Source: an uncultured Chthonomonadaceae bacterium
GTDB lineage: Bacteria > Armatimonadota > Chthonomonadetes > Chthonomonadales > Chthonomonadaceae
Length of the DNA stretch: 64,000 nt
Reading direction: 5' to 3'
Assembly (NCBI GenBank): GCA_963817895.1
Contig: CAWFQB010000002.1
Span: forward strand, 32,001-96,000
Part shown: positions 26,941-39,793 of the stretch, piece after piece
Layout: each line of letters begins with the position of its first letter
How positions within the stretch are numbered: position 1 is the stretch's first letter
The notes under the pieces: model-generated
Told to the model about the DNA's origin: nothing
Seen by the model: the letters and a program-made list of their open reading frames with translations, nothing else
Database searches by the model: none
Position numbers and translations under genes: made by a program

Positions 26941-28004
26941 AGATACTCCGACAAATAAGTTTGGATTTATTCTTGGCGCGGGTAGAATAGACGTATGAAC
27001 CTTCACGAACTTGGCCGCTATCCCGAAAACAAAGTCCGTTCGCTCTTCGGACTACCCCACGCCGCCTTAGCTGAACTCTTCCTGGCAGCGCTTCCCGAAA
27101 TCGAGCGCCGTCGCCAACAAGAACAGGCCAACAAGCCCACGCGCCGCCGCAAGGTGGGAGGCGGCCGCAAACGCCTGCTCAAGCCCTACCAGGAAGTGTT
27201 GCTGACGCTGCTGTACCTGCGCCACAACGTCGCCTTCTCTGTGGTGGGCATGCTGTTTGGCGTCAGCGCCGATGTGGCGGAGAACACCTTCCATGAGATT
27301 GTCGGCGTCCTCAAAGACGTGTGTCCGGCCAACCGCTGGGAAGCGGAGAAACGCTGGACCAAGAAAGAACCCTCCTGGAAGCCCGAGGAGGTGGATCAGG
27401 TGATTGTGGATAGTTTCGAGACGCCGGTTCCGCGTCCCTCGATTGAACCCAAGCAACGCGCCTTCTACTCGGGCAAGAAGAAAGACCACACGCTCAAGAC
27501 CGAGGTCATCACCAACCGCAATGGCGACATTCTTGATGTGGATGCGGGCTATCGCGGCCCGAAGTCGGACAAGAAAGTGCATGAGCAGAGTACGGTTGCC
27601 AAGCAGTTTCCCCATGCGACGGTCAAAGGCGATCTGGCCTATCAAGGCTTACCCCACAGCGAAGTGCCGCACAAGAAGCCACGCGGAGGCGCGTTGAGCG
27701 CTGTGCAGAAAGAAGAGAACCGCGCCTTTTCCTCAGGGCGTGTGCGTGTCGAACATAGTATCCGGCGCGTCAAAGCGTTTCGGATGGTGCGTGATGAATA
27801 TCGTCTGGCGACGGGATTGTTCCGTCGCACTTGCTTCTGTGTGGTGGGTCTGGTGCAATTGATCGCGCTGACACGCGAGCCGCAAGGCGCGTAAGCCGGG
27901 AAAAGTAAACGCGGAAAAAGGGTTTTCGACGGGTGGAGTGTGTCTGCTCCACCTGAGCGCTAGCCTGCCTCAAAACAGCCTATATACTATTTGTCGGAGT
28001 ATCT
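26941..28004 (+). mobile_element. IS5-family (ISL2-like) insertion sequence, 1064 bp
   Basis: Perfect 17-bp TIRs AGATACTCCGACAAATA / TATTTGTCGGAGTATCT; AAT duplicated on both sides; single transposase ORF. Confidence 0.92.
26995..27894 (+). CDS. DDE transposase (HTH_Tnp_4 + DDE_Tnp_4 type)
   Basis: GGGRKRLL, LLYLRH, IVDSFE, YSGKKKDHTLK, GDLAYQG, RVRVEHSIRRVK. Confidence 0.92.
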   Translation: MNLHELGRYPENKVRSLFGLPHAALAELFLAALPEIERRRQQEQANKPTRRRKVGGGRKRLLKPYQEVLLTLLYLRHNVAFSVVGMLFGVSADVAENTFHEIVGVLKDVCPANRWEAEKRWTKKEPSWKPEEVDQVIVDSFETPVPRPSIEPKQRAFYSGKKKDHTLKTEVITNRNGDILDVDAGYRGPKSDKKVHEQSTVAKQFPHATVKGDLAYQGLPHSEVPHKKPRGGALSAVQKEENRAFSSGRVRVEHSIRRVKAFRMVRDEYRLATGLFRRTCFCVVGLVQLIALTREPQGA

Positions 28005-34123: not shown

Positions 34124-35422
34124 ATGTCTTTACCGGATGTTTCTTATAGCCGCCGTCCCACCCGCGCCGTTCGCGTGGGCGACATTTATATTGGTGGGGC
34201 GCACCCCGTTGTCGTACAGTCCATGATTACCGAGGAGACGCATAACGTCCCCTCCGCTGTGGAGCAGATCATTGCCATGCACAAGGCGGGCAGTGAAATC
34301 GTGCGGGTCACCACGCCCAATCTGGCGGAAGCGCGGTGTCTGGCGGAAATCAAGGCGCGGCTCAAGCAACAATATATGGATGTGCCGCTCGTGGCGGATG
34401 TGCATCATCAGGGCAGCGATATTGCCGTCGAGGTGGCGAAGTATGTGGACAAAATCCGCATCAATCCCGGCCTGTTCGTGTTCCGCAAGCGCATTGCGCG
34501 GACGCTGGACTACTCCCCTCTGGAAGTGGAAGAGGAGCAGGCGGCGATTGAAAAAGAACTGTTGCCCGTTATCAACGCCTGCAAACAGCGCGACCTTGCC
34601 ATGCGGATTGGCGTCAATCACGGCAGCCTTGCCGAACGCCTGACCGTGATGTACGGCGACACGCCCGAAGGCATGGTGCAGTCCGCTATCGAGTACATTC
34701 AGATTTGCGAACGGCACGATTACCGCAACATTGTTATCTCGCTGAAAGCGAGCCGCGTCCCCGTGATGCTGCAAGCCAACCGGCTGATGGCGCAGCGCAT
34801 GGCTGAGTTGAGTATGGATTACCCGCTGCATTTGGGCGTGACGGAAGCGGGCAGCGGGCAGTACGCGCGCATCAAAAGCACGGCAGGCATCGGCACGCTG
34901 TTGGCTGAAGGTATTGGCGATACGATTCGCGTGTCCCTGTCGGAAGACCCGGTGGAAGAACTCCCCGCCTGCTACGACATTTTGCAGGCGTTGGGCATCC
35001 GGCGCACCAAAGTAGAACTGATTTCGTGTCCCTCGTGCGGGCGCACGAAGTTCGATCTGCCCATTGTGGCGAACTGGGTCGAGTCGGCAGTGAAGCACCT
35101 GGCGGGCAATCTGACGGTTGCGGTCATGGGCTGCATCGTGAACGGGCCGGGCGAAATGGCGGACGCGGATTACGGTTATGTTGGCAAAGCGGGCGGCAAA
35201 ATTTCGCTGTACCGGGGCCGCGAAGAGGTGAAAACCGGCATCCCGCAGGAAAACAGCATCGAGGAACTGGTCAACCTCATCAAATCCGACGGCAAATGGA
35301 TACAGCCGCACGAGGGCTGGCAGATTCCCCCGCCGCCGCAAGCCCTGCGCGACCGCATCACCGTCGCCAGTGGTTCCGGCGCGAACAGCAGCGTCAACGT
35401 CATCCCGCTTGTCGTGAAGTAA
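34124..35422 (+). CDS. ispG: (E)-4-hydroxy-3-methylbut-2-enyl-diphosphate synthase
   Basis: [58 protein letters not shown]. Confidence 0.96.
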
Positions 35423-35440: not shown

Positions 35441-36025
35441 ATGTACATAAGCGATGTCACAATGGGACAACTTGAGCGCGTCCTGACGAAATTCGATTTC
35501 GTCAGGCATGTTGTGTCCGGCCTGACGACTCCGGGGCCAGATGCGTGCCTCTATTTCGACAAGCCGAACAGCAAACATGCCTTCACATTCCCTGTATATG
35601 GGGAGCAGGAGCGTATCCCGTTGGTTCATGTTATGTCCACAGCCTCTTTTCTGGATGCTTGGGATTACATTGACCGGGCGGAATTCCCGAACCTGCTGAC
35701 GGAAGGCCGAGGCCCGCTTCCCTACAAGGAACTGCGGGCAATCACCCCGGCAGATTTCAGGAATGTGACCTATGCTATGCTCGAAGCAACGCTGCTGCGC
35801 TTCGGCTTTGTCAGGTTTGTAGCCCCGTCGGGACATTTCTGTTATGAGCATCCAGACGGCGCAACGGTCACAACGGGCAAGTTTGCGCCGGAACAGATTG
35901 CCCATGAAGTCCATGTATTGGGCGCGCGGTCTACTGTTGACAATTGGGGCATTGCGGAGCGGGAAACCTTCGAGAAGATGCTGGCGGAGTGCAGCGCAGG
36001 TTGTTTCCAATGTTGCTGTTCCTGA
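35441..36025 (+). CDS. Protein with two tandem HicA-like domains
   Basis: Internal repeat VT...LE.vL..F.FVR...; second domain SGHFCYEHP..VDNWGIAERETFEKML; homologous to 39473-39793. Fold assignment from recalled pattern only. Confidence 0.55.
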   Translation: MYISDVTMGQLERVLTKFDFVRHVVSGLTTPGPDACLYFDKPNSKHAFTFPVYGEQERIPLVHVMSTASFLDAWDYIDRAEFPNLLTEGRGPLPYKELRAITPADFRNVTYAMLEATLLRFGFVRFVAPSGHFCYEHPDGATVTTGKFAPEQIAHEVHVLGARSTVDNWGIAERETFEKMLAECSAGCFQCCCS

Positions 36026-36142
36026 ACCGGCGACGGCGTAGAACCCAATGCCGTATGAGGTTGAAAGCCGTATCAGAGTCGTGTAGAAGCCGCGCAAGAA
36101 GAGCCGTGCAATACGGTAGAGTCCGTGCAATGGCGCAAGCGT

Positions 36143-36194
36143 CCGTGCAATAAATTGCGCGGCTGTGATAACGAAACCCGCCTTCGCGGGTTGA
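36143..36194 (+). repeat. Left 52-bp REP-like inverted repeat of the Y1 transposase
   Basis: 47/52 identical to the reverse complement of 36675-36726; two internal hairpins. Confidence 0.85.
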
Positions 36195-36221
36195 GCGGGT
36201 AGAATTTGTTGTGGAGAAGAC

Positions 36222-36782
36222 ATGCCACGTTCTTGTTCGCACATCTATTTGCATTTTGTTTGGGCTACGTGGGACCGCTTGCCGCTCATCAAGCCGGAGT
36301 TGGAAGCGCAGGTATATGCCTGCATGTCGCAAAAATGCGAGGAACAACGCTGTAAACTGATTGCTATTGGCGGCACAGCCAATCATATTCACGCGCTCGT
36401 TCGTATCCGCGCTCTCTCATGCCCGATGGACATTGTCAAGAACATGAAGGGTACATCGTCACATCTAATGACGCATGTACTGATGCCCAACCATTTCTTC
36501 AAGTGGCAGGGTACGTATGGCGTTCGCAGTGTTGACCCGAATGGCGTGGAAACCGTTCGCGCCTATATTCGCAACCAGAAAGAACATCACGCCAACAACG
36601 ATGTCTGGCTCGAATGGGAACAGTGCATGGCCGAAGACGACGAGCCTGCGTTCGATTGGTCCTTGCCTCCACCTTCAGTCCGCGAAGGCGGACTTCGTTA
36701 CCACAGCCGCGCAATTTATTGCACGGCTCAGTCCTTCATCATTGAAACACATTCTGAATGTAACTCATTGAGCAAAGTATGA
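36222..36782 (+). CDS. tnpA: HUH Y1 transposase (IS200/TnpA-REP/RAYT type), no TnpB
   Basis: HFVWATWDR, GGTANHIHAL (HUH), KGTSS, FKWQGTY, YIRNQKEHH (catalytic Tyr). Confidence 0.9.
   Translation: MPRSCSHIYLHFVWATWDRLPLIKPELEAQVYACMSQKCEEQRCKLIAIGGTANHIHALVRIRALSCPMDIVKNMKGTSSHLMTHVLMPNHFFKWQGTYGVRSVDPNGVETVRAYIRNQKEHHANNDVWLEWEQCMAEDDEPAFDWSLPPPSVREGGLRYHSRAIYCTAQSFIIETHSECNSLSKV
36675..36726 (-). repeat. Right 52-bp REP-like inverted repeat (inside the tnpA 3' end)
   Basis: Reverse complement reads CCGTGCAATAAATTGCGCGGCTGTGGTAACGAAGTCCGCCTTCGCGGACTGA. Confidence 0.85.
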
Positions 36783-38155
36783 CATCTAAACCTTTCTCAG
36801 CATGGATAAAAGAGCAACGTGAAAAACGCAATCTTACACCCTCTGATTGCATGAAGAGAATCAATGACAAGTTCGGTACGAAATCGAACAGTAATGCGTG
36901 GTCAAACTGGGAAAGGCGAGATAACAAAGATAAAATTAATACTGAAAGAGTCCGTAAAGTCGCCTGTGGCCTACAAGTGTCGGAGGCTGAAGTTTTTGCT
37001 GCTGGAATGCCAGTAAGTGATGAAGTTTTATCGGGCAATACGCCTGATGTTGATAGCAATTATATTGAACCACTTGTGTCAAACTTGCCACTGGACAGTA
37101 TCCCGACGCGAATTGAAGCCGTGTTGGGGCGCAAGGGACAGGTGATTTTGAAGGGGCCGCCGGGAACGGGCAAAACGTATTGGGCGGAGATTGCGGCTCG
37201 TGAACTAGCTGCGCATTCTGCGTTCGGGAAGGCGTTTGACACGCTGACGCCGGAGGAGCGTACCGTTGTCAGTGGCGACAATACCAATATGGGACTTGTG
37301 CGCTGGTGCTGTTTTCATCCGGCTTACGGGTATGAGGATTTTCTGGAAGGGTATCGGCCTCACGCGCAGGATGGGCAGATGCTGTTTGAACTGCGCAATG
37401 GCATTTTCAAGACGCTATGTGAGGACGCCCACGCGAACCCGAACCATAATTTTTACCTGCTTGTGGATGAAATCAACCGGGGCGACATTCCGCGCATCTT
37501 CGGGGAACTGCTCACCATTCTGGAAAGCAACAAGCGAGGCAAAACGGTTGTCCTTCCCCTGAGCAAAACGCCGTTCGCCGTACCGAAAAATGTGTACGTG
37601 ATTGGAACGATGAACACGGCGGATCGTTCCATTGCCCTGCTTGACGCCGCCCTGCACAGGCGCTTCGGCTTTATCGAACTCATGCCCGACAGTTCCACAT
37701 TGGGGCTGGCGTTTATTGAAGGTATTCCTCTTGCGGCGTGGCTGGACGCGCTGAACGCCCGCATTTGCAAACACATCGGGCGCGATGCCCGCAACCTGCA
37801 AATTGGTCACTCCTACTTTCTGGAAAAAGGGCATCCCATACGCGACTTCGCCCATTTGCGCCGCGTGTTACGCGAAGACATTGTTCCCCTGCTGGAAGAA
37901 TACTGCTACGAAGATTACGCCGCGCTGGAAAAGATATTGGGCAGCGGTCTCGTGGATATGCAGAAGCAGCAGATACGCGAGGAGTTGTTTGATCCGGCGC
38001 GACAGGATGAATTAGTGACTGCGCTGTTGGAACCCTGTCCCGAAATCATCGCTACACCGCAGGCTGTAAAGATGGAAGCGGAAGCCGAAAACGAGGCGCA
38101 GGAACTTGATAACGAAGCCGAGGACGATATTGACACGATGGACGGCAGCGAATGA
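36779..38155 (+). CDS. mcrB: McrB-family AAA+ GTPase with an N-terminal XRE-like HTH
   Basis: GPPGTGKT, FHPAYGYEDF.EG, DEINRG, MNTADRS, GHSYF; N-terminus FSAWIKEQREKRNLT...WSNWER...KVACGLQV. Confidence 0.9.
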   Translation: MTSKPFSAWIKEQREKRNLTPSDCMKRINDKFGTKSNSNAWSNWERRDNKDKINTERVRKVACGLQVSEAEVFAAGMPVSDEVLSGNTPDVDSNYIEPLVSNLPLDSIPTRIEAVLGRKGQVILKGPPGTGKTYWAEIAARELAAHSAFGKAFDTLTPEERTVVSGDNTNMGLVRWCCFHPAYGYEDFLEGYRPHAQDGQMLFELRNGIFKTLCEDAHANPNHNFYLLVDEINRGDIPRIFGELLTILESNKRGKTVVLPLSKTPFAVPKNVYVIGTMNTADRSIALLDAALHRRFGFIELMPDSSTLGLAFIEGIPLAAWLDALNARICKHIGRDARNLQIGHSYFLEKGHPIRDFAHLRRVLREDIVPLLEEYCYEDYAALEKILGSGLVDMQKQQIREELFDPARQDELVTALLEPCPEIIATPQAVKMEAEAENEAQELDNEAEDDIDTMDGSE

Positions 38156-39471
38156 ATTTCCCGGTCAACATTCGGCTTGCTGAGTGGGAAACCCGGACGC
38201 CGCGAACAGACCCGACATTGCGCGATGTACGGCTTGTGGATAATGCCGATACGCGGCTTGTCGTAGCAAAACTGGCGCAGGCAGACATTCTCAACATCGT
38301 GGAACTGCGCGACGGATTGAGTATTCAGGCGTTTGCGCATGTCGGCAAAATCGAAATCGGCAATGTCGCCGTCACCATTCGCCCCAAAATACCCGCGCCC
38401 TCCCTGCTGCATCTGCTGCGCTACGCTTACGACCTGCGCAACCTTGACTTGTTCGCGGACACCACATTCGACAGCGAACCCGAAGCGTTTCAAGACCTGC
38501 TCCTGCATCAACTGGCGGAAGAAGCGGCGGAACTGCTGGCGCGGGGTTTGCATCGTCAATACCGGCGCACCGAGGAAGAGTTGGCGAGTCCGCGCGGCAG
38601 CCTCGACATGCGCAAACTGGCGCGAACAGGCGGCATGGTAAGCGCGACACTCCCCTGCGTCCACTATCCCCGTTCGCAAAACACGCTGCCCAATCAGGTA
38701 TTGCTCAGTGGCTTGCAATGGGGCGCGAATATGGCGCTATCGCCGCGCTTGAAAACGCGCCTGCATCGCCTTGCCGGAACCTTGCGCGAGGACATGACGC
38801 CCGCTCTCCTGAACCGCGAAACGTTTGCCCGCCTCCGCGCCCATTCCACGCGCCTGACCGCCGCCTACCGGCCCACCTTTACGCTCATCCAACTGTTGCT
38901 GGCAGGCGCGGGCATTCATCTGGAATCAGACGAAAACACGCTGCCATTGCCCGGTTTCTTGTTCGATATGAACCGTTTCTTTGAGGCTTTGCTGTCGAAG
39001 TTTTTGCGCGAAAATCTATCTGGTTATGTGGTTCGTGACCAAATGGCACTGCGCGGCGTGGTGGCGTACAATCCGTTGTATAATCCCCGTCGTCGTTCGG
39101 CGCGGTCGCCGCGCCCGGACTACATTGTTCTTAAGGGGAGCAAAACCGTCGCTATTCTGGACGCGAAGTATCGAGACTTGTGGGAAAAGCCCCTGCCGCG
39201 CGAAATGCTGTACCAACTCGCCATGTACGCCCTGCTTGGCGGCTGTCCGCAGGCAGCCGTGATTTTGTATCCGGCTTTCAACTCCGAAGCCTCAGAACAG
39301 CGCATAGATATTTGCGCCCCGCTTGCCGGGACGCGGCAGGCTCAGGTGATCTTGCGTCCTGTCCCCCTGAACCTGCTGGAACAAGCAACCCTGCAAACAA
39401 CAGGCGCACAGGCGCAACGCGTCCGAACCGCTCTGGCGCAAAAGTTTGCTTTTGGCGAACAGGAAGGGTAA
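38152..39471 (+). CDS. mcrC: McrC-family PD-(D/E)xK nuclease
   Basis: IRPKI, FLFDMNRFFE, RPDYIV..ILDAKYR, LYQLAMYA; ATGA overlap with mcrB. Confidence 0.9.
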   Translation: MNFPVNIRLAEWETRTPRTDPTLRDVRLVDNADTRLVVAKLAQADILNIVELRDGLSIQAFAHVGKIEIGNVAVTIRPKIPAPSLLHLLRYAYDLRNLDLFADTTFDSEPEAFQDLLLHQLAEEAAELLARGLHRQYRRTEEELASPRGSLDMRKLARTGGMVSATLPCVHYPRSQNTLPNQVLLSGLQWGANMALSPRLKTRLHRLAGTLREDMTPALLNRETFARLRAHSTRLTAAYRPTFTLIQLLLAGAGIHLESDENTLPLPGFLFDMNRFFEALLSKFLRENLSGYVVRDQMALRGVVAYNPLYNPRRRSARSPRPDYIVLKGSKTVAILDAKYRDLWEKPLPREMLYQLAMYALLGGCPQAAVILYPAFNSEASEQRIDICAPLAGTRQAQVILRPVPLNLLEQATLQTTGAQAQRVRTALAQKFAFGEQEG

Positions 39472-39472
39472 A

Positions 39473-39793
39473 ATGCGTAAACGCCGCACACGAGAACACA
39501 TCATTACCGTAACAATGGCTGCTCTTGAGCGCGTCCTGCTTGAACTTGGTTACATAAAGCGCGTTGTTGCGAACTCGCATCTGCGCTTCGAGCCGAGCGA
39601 ACAGCAGGGGGGCGTGATTTTGCTGCCGTTGTTCAAGGCTGATGAAGTGGTTCCGTCCATTGATCTGCTGATGGCGGAAGTCACTGTAGATAATTGGGGC
39701 ATTGCGGACCGGGAAACGTTCGAGCGTATGTTGTCGGAAAGCGTTCATCCGAAGACGCTGGCGAAGCCGGAGCCGGTGGAAGCCGCCGCATAG
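39473..39793 (+). CDS. HicA-like protein
   Basis: Starts 1 nt after the mcrC stop; LERVLLELGY..NSHLRF..LLP..VDNWGIADRETFERML. Confidence 0.55.
   Translation: MRKRRTREHIITVTMAALERVLLELGYIKRVVANSHLRFEPSEQQGGVILLPLFKADEVVPSIDLLMAEVTVDNWGIADRETFERMLSESVHPKTLAKPEPVEAAA

Follow-up and report, generated by a model that had tools for sequence, protein, structure and literature searches.

The window analysed here is a stretch of 64,000 nucleotides from a 7.5-Mb genome that is 81% complete. It contains an mcrBC locus behind ispG in which the frame encoding the McrB GTPase opens with a helix-turn-helix (HTH) domain. The gene order is ispG, gene X1, a repeat, a Y1 transposase, the inverted repeat, a leader, HTH-mcrB, mcrC and a DUF4365 remnant joined to gene X2. 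The features are as follows:

34124-35422: ispG, to the left of the cassette
35441..36025, + strand: gene X1, 194 aa, a paralogue of X2 doubled in tandem; it forms the left edge of the cassette, behind ispG
36143..36194, - strand: left arm, 52 nt, one member of an inverted repeat pair; the repeat is multi-copy, REP-like and forms a double hairpin
36222..36782, + strand: Y1/HuH transposase-like gene (TnpA-Y1); Pfam Y1_Tnp E 1e-20, NF033573 above cut-off
36675..36726, + strand: right repeat arm, folding z -4.1
36727..36778, + strand: AT-rich leader, 52 nt, with a 6-1-6 palindrome at 36749-36761 as a possible operator
36779..37051, + strand: XRE/Cro HTH domain, AT-rich, aa 1-91 (fold aa 3-78)
37052..37108, + strand: linker, aa 92-110, in which the last part repeats the McrB helix-1 entry in diverged form
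37109..38155, + strand: McrB AAA+ GTPase domain from aa 111, placed by motifs and homology to solved McrBs
38152..39471, + strand: McrC, PD-(D/E)XK nuclease partner, 439 aa; Pfam McrBC (PF10117) E 5e-31
39473..39793, + strand: DUF4365 remnant plus X2, with the first 11 DUF4365 codons in frame with X2

In the ORF list of the window, positions 36779-38155 of the + strand are a single open frame of 458 aa, which consists of an XRE/Cro HTH, a short linker and the McrB GTPase, all in frame. Likeness to the E. coli and Thermococcus McrB proteins starts at about aa 110 and Walker A at aa 126, which bears out an earlier note on this DNA that had placed only ~110 aa before the GTPase domain. The XRE-like peptides quoted in that note are present in the translation, and its GC counts (24/60, 21/60 and 37/60) were exact on recount. 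The composition break that it described inside one ORF was also recovered: GC is 42% in the first 330 nt and 55% in the remainder (GC3, 38% and 64%), with the best change point at 37087. Of the 1497 long ORFs in the genome, 8 showed a GC step as large as this and 3 a GC3 step of such size, counts that presumably take in the fusion gene itself; among family loci, 2 of 79 (from the best 80 of 203) showed such a GC step, the median being 0. DNA identity to the mcrB of a genome of the same genus (G002) starts at 37109, and the join lies at 37087-37109.

An assembly chimera near 37090, which the earlier note had kept in view, would fit the sharp GC step, the multi-copy repeat 360 nt upstream of the join and a genome only 81% complete. 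However, P0001, a protein from another assembly encoded on a different contig (396 kb), carries the same HTH and linker with the same join, and is 94% identical overall to the window fusion. In addition, a 4293-nt contig of sequencing run X1 covers 36697-39505 in one unbroken piece, with 289 differing letters and 7 gaps; runs X2-X4 yielded no long piece across the HTH. The chimera is largely refuted by the second assembly and this contig, and we consider it highly improbable. The fusion is known from two proteins and one run contig, all from one strain cluster, in which the fusion-bearing strains differ by up to ~10% in DNA. Since it is limited to this lineage, it should be fairly recent.

The nature of the N-terminus was addressed with several types of search. 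Pfam HTH_3 gave a weak match (E 0.018-0.024, below the cut-off), the top matches in the Atlas search (0.94-0.95) were HTH_3/HTH_31 clusters, and a profile built from eight HTH relatives matched an immunity repressor (E 4e-4). An alignment-based model (pLDDT 74) shows five helices (6-16, 21-32, 40-46, 55-65 and 69-76); folding aa 1-110 from the single sequence gave a model of low quality (pLDDT 50), which was set aside. The 50 rows listed in a wide structural search with the model are mostly lambda-repressor-like domains, and C.BclI reached Z 7.9 in this search; against DdrO, the model scored Z 8.2 (rmsd 2.2, 66 aligned). Foldseek returned no match at E <= 0.001, its best rows being mostly of lambda-repressor-like fold. 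Profile, Atlas, model and structural searches therefore agree with the earlier note that this is an XRE HTH: as modelled, the N-terminus is an all-helical XRE/Cro fold and not a known modified-base reader.

Relatives of this HTH are scarce. Among 1.84 billion 50%-identity cluster representatives, only six matches were obtained at E <= 0.001: P0001, which is the sole fusion, P0126, three distant free regulators and a 1503-aa repeat protein (P0128) discarded as a chance match. P0126 is a free-standing HTH of 95 aa, ~69% identical to the fusion (28 differences in 91 positions). Because the alignment reaches aa 91, with P0126 ending just beyond, the fusion contains practically an entire small gene, and a free-standing HTH like P0126 is the likely donor type, though P0126 could itself be a broken fusion and might be an older member of the XRE-McrB fusion lineage. 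When 401 genomes of the phylum were searched with a broader HTH profile, 15 of them yielded a total of 19 matches, 17 of which lie in frames of 120-254 aa (three of these 17 are members of the search profile itself); within the 3-kb loci around the 19 matches, only that of the window adjoins McrB/McrC. In 68 genomes of the class, the HTH was found only in its own genome, next to one weak and distant free-standing match. A length-restricted protein search (251-802 aa) returned one fusion among 25 candidates, the known one, and a second such search for further close free HTH copies gave nothing new (1 of 29 candidates), the two together leaving out 176-250 aa and >802 aa. Searches for close relatives with DNA context gave two weak, spurious matches among 221 stretches from JGI metagenomes, 0 of 152 genome contigs, 0 of 132 viral contigs and none in plasmids or phages. 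The linker (aa 85-103) showed no significant likeness to that of P0002, a full-length McrB homologue (shuffle p 0.67), which leaves a derivation from the McrB linker unsupported.

The N-termini of McrB proteins are interchangeable, and the earlier note had raised the possibility that close GTPase homologues carry different ones. They do, and in most cases a much longer one. A GTPase homologue search gave 7976 matches among 8000 candidates, of which the best 120 listed were analysed; Walker A lies past residue 400 in 99 of these. Among the 118 top homologues with a testable N-terminal stretch, 112 match the N-terminus of P0002 (P0002 counted in), and only P0001 matches the HTH of the fusion. 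The P0002-type N-terminus comprises ~420 aa, a helical domain of ~240 aa followed by DUF8426 (PF28530), and the usual length of this McrB subfamily is ~770 aa. Atlas matches (0.87-0.89) provide a lead that DUF8426 may be EVE-like. The family N-terminus lost from the fusion gave no Pfam match and none among the 60 PDB rows listed. Aa 1-240 of P0002, N-terminal to DUF8426, may be an uncharacterised reader or catalytic domain; the subfamily is 50-59% identical across phyla over the whole protein.

The same picture emerges from the best 80 of 203 genome loci of the family. Both N-terminal parts are fused to the GTPase in 70 of the 80, both lie upstream with a broken frame in four, one part is present in two, and four have neither; L080 and L081 have other N-termini, that of L081 being EVE. 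McrC is present in 77 of these 80 loci and the XRE HTH in none. As the relatives keep a long, conserved N-terminus, ~420 aa have been replaced by ~110 aa in the fusion. Its GTPase is 93% identical to that of full-length P0002 over aa 111-375 (19 differences in 265) and has the same McrC partner, and this ~770-aa subfamily is, judging by sequence, the direct source of the 3' part, minus the ~240-aa helical domain and DUF8426. Of the recent domain swap proposed earlier, the recent part holds, in keeping with the limited lineage. With ~420 aa lost for ~110 gained, the change could equally be a stray gene that took the place of the N-terminus or a clean exchange of readers. The possibility that an XRE controller normally stands upstream of mcrB in this subfamily and became fused by deletion was rejected, as no XRE gene was found among 117 upstream ORFs of 64 family loci (a count that leaves out 9 of 126 candidates, situated inside broken mcrB genes).

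In G002, mcrB (L020:10127-11588) is frameshifted and mosaic; it contains the N-terminus/GTPase boundary twice and has a GC of 46% in its N-terminal part versus 56%, suggesting allele exchange at this boundary. Given the two copies, the boundary may be a recurrent exchange point in the genus. Altered or swapped N-termini (EVE, TPR-like) were also seen in the subfamily mcrB of four methanogen loci (L069, L080, L081 and L091); three of these stand behind an FKBP gene, and two methanogen loci have the largest GC steps of the family set.

The GTPase of the fusion matches TgMcrB (E 5e-46) and EcMcrB (E 5e-43), as well as PRK11331 (E 5e-42, short of the 637-bit equivalog cut-off). Its catalytic motifs are intact: GPPGTGKT at 126-133, the Walker B DE at 230-231 and MNTADRS at 278-284. 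R294/R295 are also kept and correspond to Arg425/Arg426 of Thermococcus gammatolerans McrB, given as sensor-II/arginine-finger residues in the available text of PMC7680126. The residue before them, at position 293 (codon 37655-37657), is His in the fusion and Arg in 118 of 118 top homologues and in 80 of 80 family loci (best 80 of 203). It maps to Tg Arg424, the first Arg of the RRR motif and an inter-subunit contact. Ala changes at the Arg424-type interface raise the basal GTPase of TgMcrB about twofold, so R293H need not kill the enzyme, and uncoupling rather than death would be expected. The fusion also carries Y125K, a Lys seen in 0 of 118 top homologues, and Ser in place of Gly107, which is 91% conserved. 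The linker/helix-1 entry reads guanine in solved McrBs; the replaced stretch takes in this part, and by analogy the fusion may be affected there. P0001 shows a private change of its own, R338H (His in 0 of 118), and the protein ends at 376 aa, before the equivalent of Tyr530, on its 396-kb contig, an end that could be a contig end or a sequence error. With both readable fusion copies damaged, a disarmed system seems likelier than one with a new target.

On a wider view, the GTPase departs at 7 of 167 conserved columns, which lies inside the spread of the family (median 3, maximum 10), and dN/dS against G002 is 0.15 for the GTPase and 0.24 for McrC, which indicates purifying selection over the long run. 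The mcrC start overlaps the mcrB stop (38152 versus 38155), and McrC looks intact: it departs at 2 of 81 conserved columns, a count equal to the median of 71 homologues. The window fusion and P0001 differ at 20 of 265 GTPase positions, at 4 of 110 in the HTH and linker, and the transposases of the two strains at 5 of 145; pooling the latter two (9 of 255), the contrast with the GTPase is borderline (Fisher p 0.056), and recombination among alleles could be its source. The GTPase of P0001 is nearer to full-length P0002 (12 differences in 265) than to the window copy (20 in 265).

Upstream of the fusion, the arms at 36143-36194 and 36675-36726 are double hairpins, 90% complementary to each other, and this REP-like repeat occurs at 34 places in the genome. 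The earlier note had suggested the left arm as a binding target of the protein; the arms, however, flank the Y1 transposase and belong to that gene, and the left arm is not an operator. The AT-rich block starts directly 3' of the right arm, and in G002 a copy of the repeat also lies just upstream of the mcrB start. The transposase relatives P0123 and P0124 end at 145 aa; the window copy, at 186 aa, has lost the usual stop and reads through the right repeat, its stop overlapping the start of the fusion (ATGA). The HuH, WQ and Y---Q--HH motifs, present in P0122-P0124, place the transposase upstream of the fusion, by motif only, in subclass 1.2, for which Table 1 of PMC6006769 gives these motifs and ~148 aa. 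In the 52-nt leader, the palindrome stands 17 nt before the fusion start; a comparable one appeared in 4.5% (spacer up to 3) to 10% (spacer up to 10) of 5000 shuffles, and its pattern occurs three times in 7.5 Mb. We found no clear ribosome-binding site before the fusion ATG and no sigma-70-like promoter in 35900-37150.

The slot behind ispG varies among relatives: it is occupied by DUF4365-X in G001 and by X alone in G002, and we therefore regard the mcrBC cassette as a mobile guest. Gene X1 is 39% identical to X2 (E 6e-19), and neither has a Pfam, PADLOC or NCBIfam match. In the window, the DUF4365 body has been deleted; it is intact at the same place in G002, and sequencing run X1 has ~480 extra letters at this site, with DUF4365 apparently intact there. 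No methyltransferase of three families (PF01555, PF00145 and PF02384) was detected in the 64-kb window, the nearest match on the contig being ~165 kb off; genome-wide, these families have 9, 5 and 18 matches. Beyond weak partial matches, no separate reader gene of the family type was found in the 81%-complete genome.

As regards the gene family of X1 and X2, it comprises proteins of ~100 aa with several copies in the genus, often behind DUF4365. Intact DUF4365-X pairs were seen in G001, G002 and at G000:C1:163607-164413, and the same kind of deletion, with the first ~11 DUF4365 codons joined in frame to X, was seen in the window (39473-39510) and in L050 (G002, behind ispG).

Taken together, we favour, with little more than even confidence, the view that the capture of a repressor gene cost McrBC its reader and left it disarmed, and that the GTPase is starting to decay. 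A mobile mcrBC cassette of the widespread ~770-aa subfamily would have settled in the variable slot behind ispG. In an ancestor of the small strain cluster, an AT-rich piece with a complete XRE repressor gene and its leader would then have recombined in between the REP-like repeat and the GTPase start, replacing the ~420-aa reader with the frame kept. If produced at all, the protein would still be able to assemble into a hexamer and to bind McrC. It would lack a modified-base reader, like E. coli McrB-S, described in PMC12707154 as the GTPase-domain product of an internal start, so that restriction would be off or much weakened. The HTH would be a passenger and the GTPase half would now be drifting, reader loss being tolerated or even favoured in a host with many methyltransferases. 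The rarity of the fusion (the six matches in 1.84 billion clusters and 0 of 80 of the best 203 loci) argues for this course of events, and so do the damage in both readable copies, the lack of a methyltransferase match in the window, the deleted DUF4365, the lost transposase stop and the free-standing state of the closest HTH relatives. On the other hand, the 458-aa frame is open, the catalytic motifs and McrC are intact, the fusion persists across strains, the 7 of 167 departures fall in the family range and the long-run dN/dS is 0.15-0.24.

Other readings keep a function for the HTH or separate it from the GTPase. It might act as a controller in the manner of a C protein, tuning operon expression from the palindrome of its own leader, with GTPase-McrC either without a reader or served by one in trans, as in R1 of LlaI/BsuMI. 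C.BclI, C.AhdI and C.Esp1396I are among the best structural matches of the HTH, but every XRE domain matches C proteins at such a level, and the palindrome 17 nt before the start is of borderline significance (p 0.045-0.10). Although the HTH is better kept than the GTPase between the two fusion copies, and natural C-REase fusions exist, one of which works in both roles according to the text available of PMC3850674, such fusions retain the nuclease's own specificity, while here the reader is gone and no separate reader gene appears in the genome beyond the weak partial matches. With no XRE gene in the 117 upstream ORFs of the 64 family loci either, we hold this role to be rather unlikely. The XRE HTH could instead be the target-recognition domain of a methyltransferase-free, sequence-specific McrBC, with six HTHs on the hexamer binding an unmodified, operator-like sequence of a phage or mobile element and McrC cutting nearby. 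The modular N-termini of McrB include one in which a B3 domain acts on unmodified DNA; the position of the join coincides exactly with the domain boundary, where G002 and L080/L081 are mosaic too; McrC and the catalytic residues are intact; and if the operator is long, its sites might be so few that the host is spared, as the three occurrences of the palindrome pattern in 7.5 Mb illustrate. Against this stand the missing nearby methyltransferase, the failure to find the fusion beyond one strain cluster, the damage in both readable copies, and the replacement of the guanine-reading linker/helix-1 entry together with Gly107 to Ser, so that such re-aiming seems unlikely. The earlier note had expected a working McrB that is sequence-specific or autoregulatory; given the damage at near-invariant GTPase positions and the lack of a methyltransferase nearby, that expectation is unsupported. 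The frame could also be incidental, with the HTH and a GTPase-only McrB expressed separately or hardly at all, the latter as an McrC sponge like McrB-S, a known internal-start product. In-frame starts are available shortly ahead of the GTPase (GTG at codon 100, TTG at codon 103), and a clear ribosome-binding site is missing at the main ATG; yet the internal starts have none either, no stop separates the two parts in the window fusion or in P0001, and in this strain the transposase frame runs on over the ATG, so that translation of the two could be coupled, which makes an incidental frame quite improbable.

Compared with canonical McrBC, the locus has the AAA+ GTPase with MNTADRS, the sensor-II/arginine-finger pair, an overlapping mcrC of the PD-(D/E)XK type and a variable N-terminal module. 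It differs in having a lambda-repressor-like HTH and no modified-base reader (DUF3578, EVE, YTH or PUA-like), where E. coli K-12 McrB has DUF3578, T. gammatolerans McrB has YTH and EVE-McrB has EVE, and in the His as first residue of the RRR motif. With C protein-REase fusions of the CR.NsoJS138I type, as presented in the available text of PMC3850674, it shares an XRE HTH in frame ahead of a restriction protein, a short linker and a candidate palindrome upstream; there, however, the Type II nuclease is whole and a methyltransferase is present, whereas in the present fusion a Type IV motor has had its specificity domain replaced by the HTH, and there is no linked methyltransferase. LlaJI, LlaI and BsuMI likewise combine an McrB-type motor with a DNA-binding module that is not for modification, but they use B3 or separate R1 modules, their restriction has been demonstrated, and all come with linked methyltransferases (bioRxiv 10.64898/2026.08.31.748284, in the part available), unlike the fusion locus, which has no linked protective one. 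E. coli McrB-S shares the GTPase without a modified-base reader and could in principle tie up McrC; in E. coli, however, a single gene yields both McrB-S and the full-length protein, while the fusion locus encodes no full-length form.

No N-terminal XRE-McrB fusion was found in the searchable literature (without subscription papers, figures and bioRxiv supplements), in the available text and supplement text of the McrBC census (PMC11090510) or in the available part of the EVE survey (PMC7641849). The census text reports C-terminal HTH fusions of Type III-A CoCoNuT GTPases and states that the classification of several branches is still to be published (PMC11090510). The XRE-McrB fusion is thus real, and its architecture is apparently undescribed; it is probably not a working new specificity. 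Intermediates of McrB N-terminus exchange are seldom seen. This locus provides one that can be dated and for which close relatives represent both states, namely P0002 at full length, P0121/P0001 as fusions and P0126 as the free HTH. It also allows a test of whether an arbitrary repressor HTH can steer the McrBC motor. If steering works, McrBC would be a programmable platform and operators possible defence targets; were retargeting true, a Type IV motor-nuclease would have been caught being re-aimed by the capture of a transcription-factor gene. If steering fails, the fusion would illustrate a simple route by which a methyltransferase-rich host can switch off a modification-dependent nuclease.

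Two further observations concern transposase genes. A second subclass-1.2 TnpA-Y1 gene is present in the genome at G000:C5, about 223360-224150; both it and the copy in the window are flanked by inverted double-hairpin repeats of ~52-56 nt, each with its own sequence. The available part of PMC6006769 tabulates subclass 1.2 without REP-like flanks. By their organization, both genes look like REPtron-type units of an understudied subclass. Elsewhere in the window, the ORF at 26995-27894 encodes, judging from its translation, a DDE transposase, which we take to be IS5/IS4-like.
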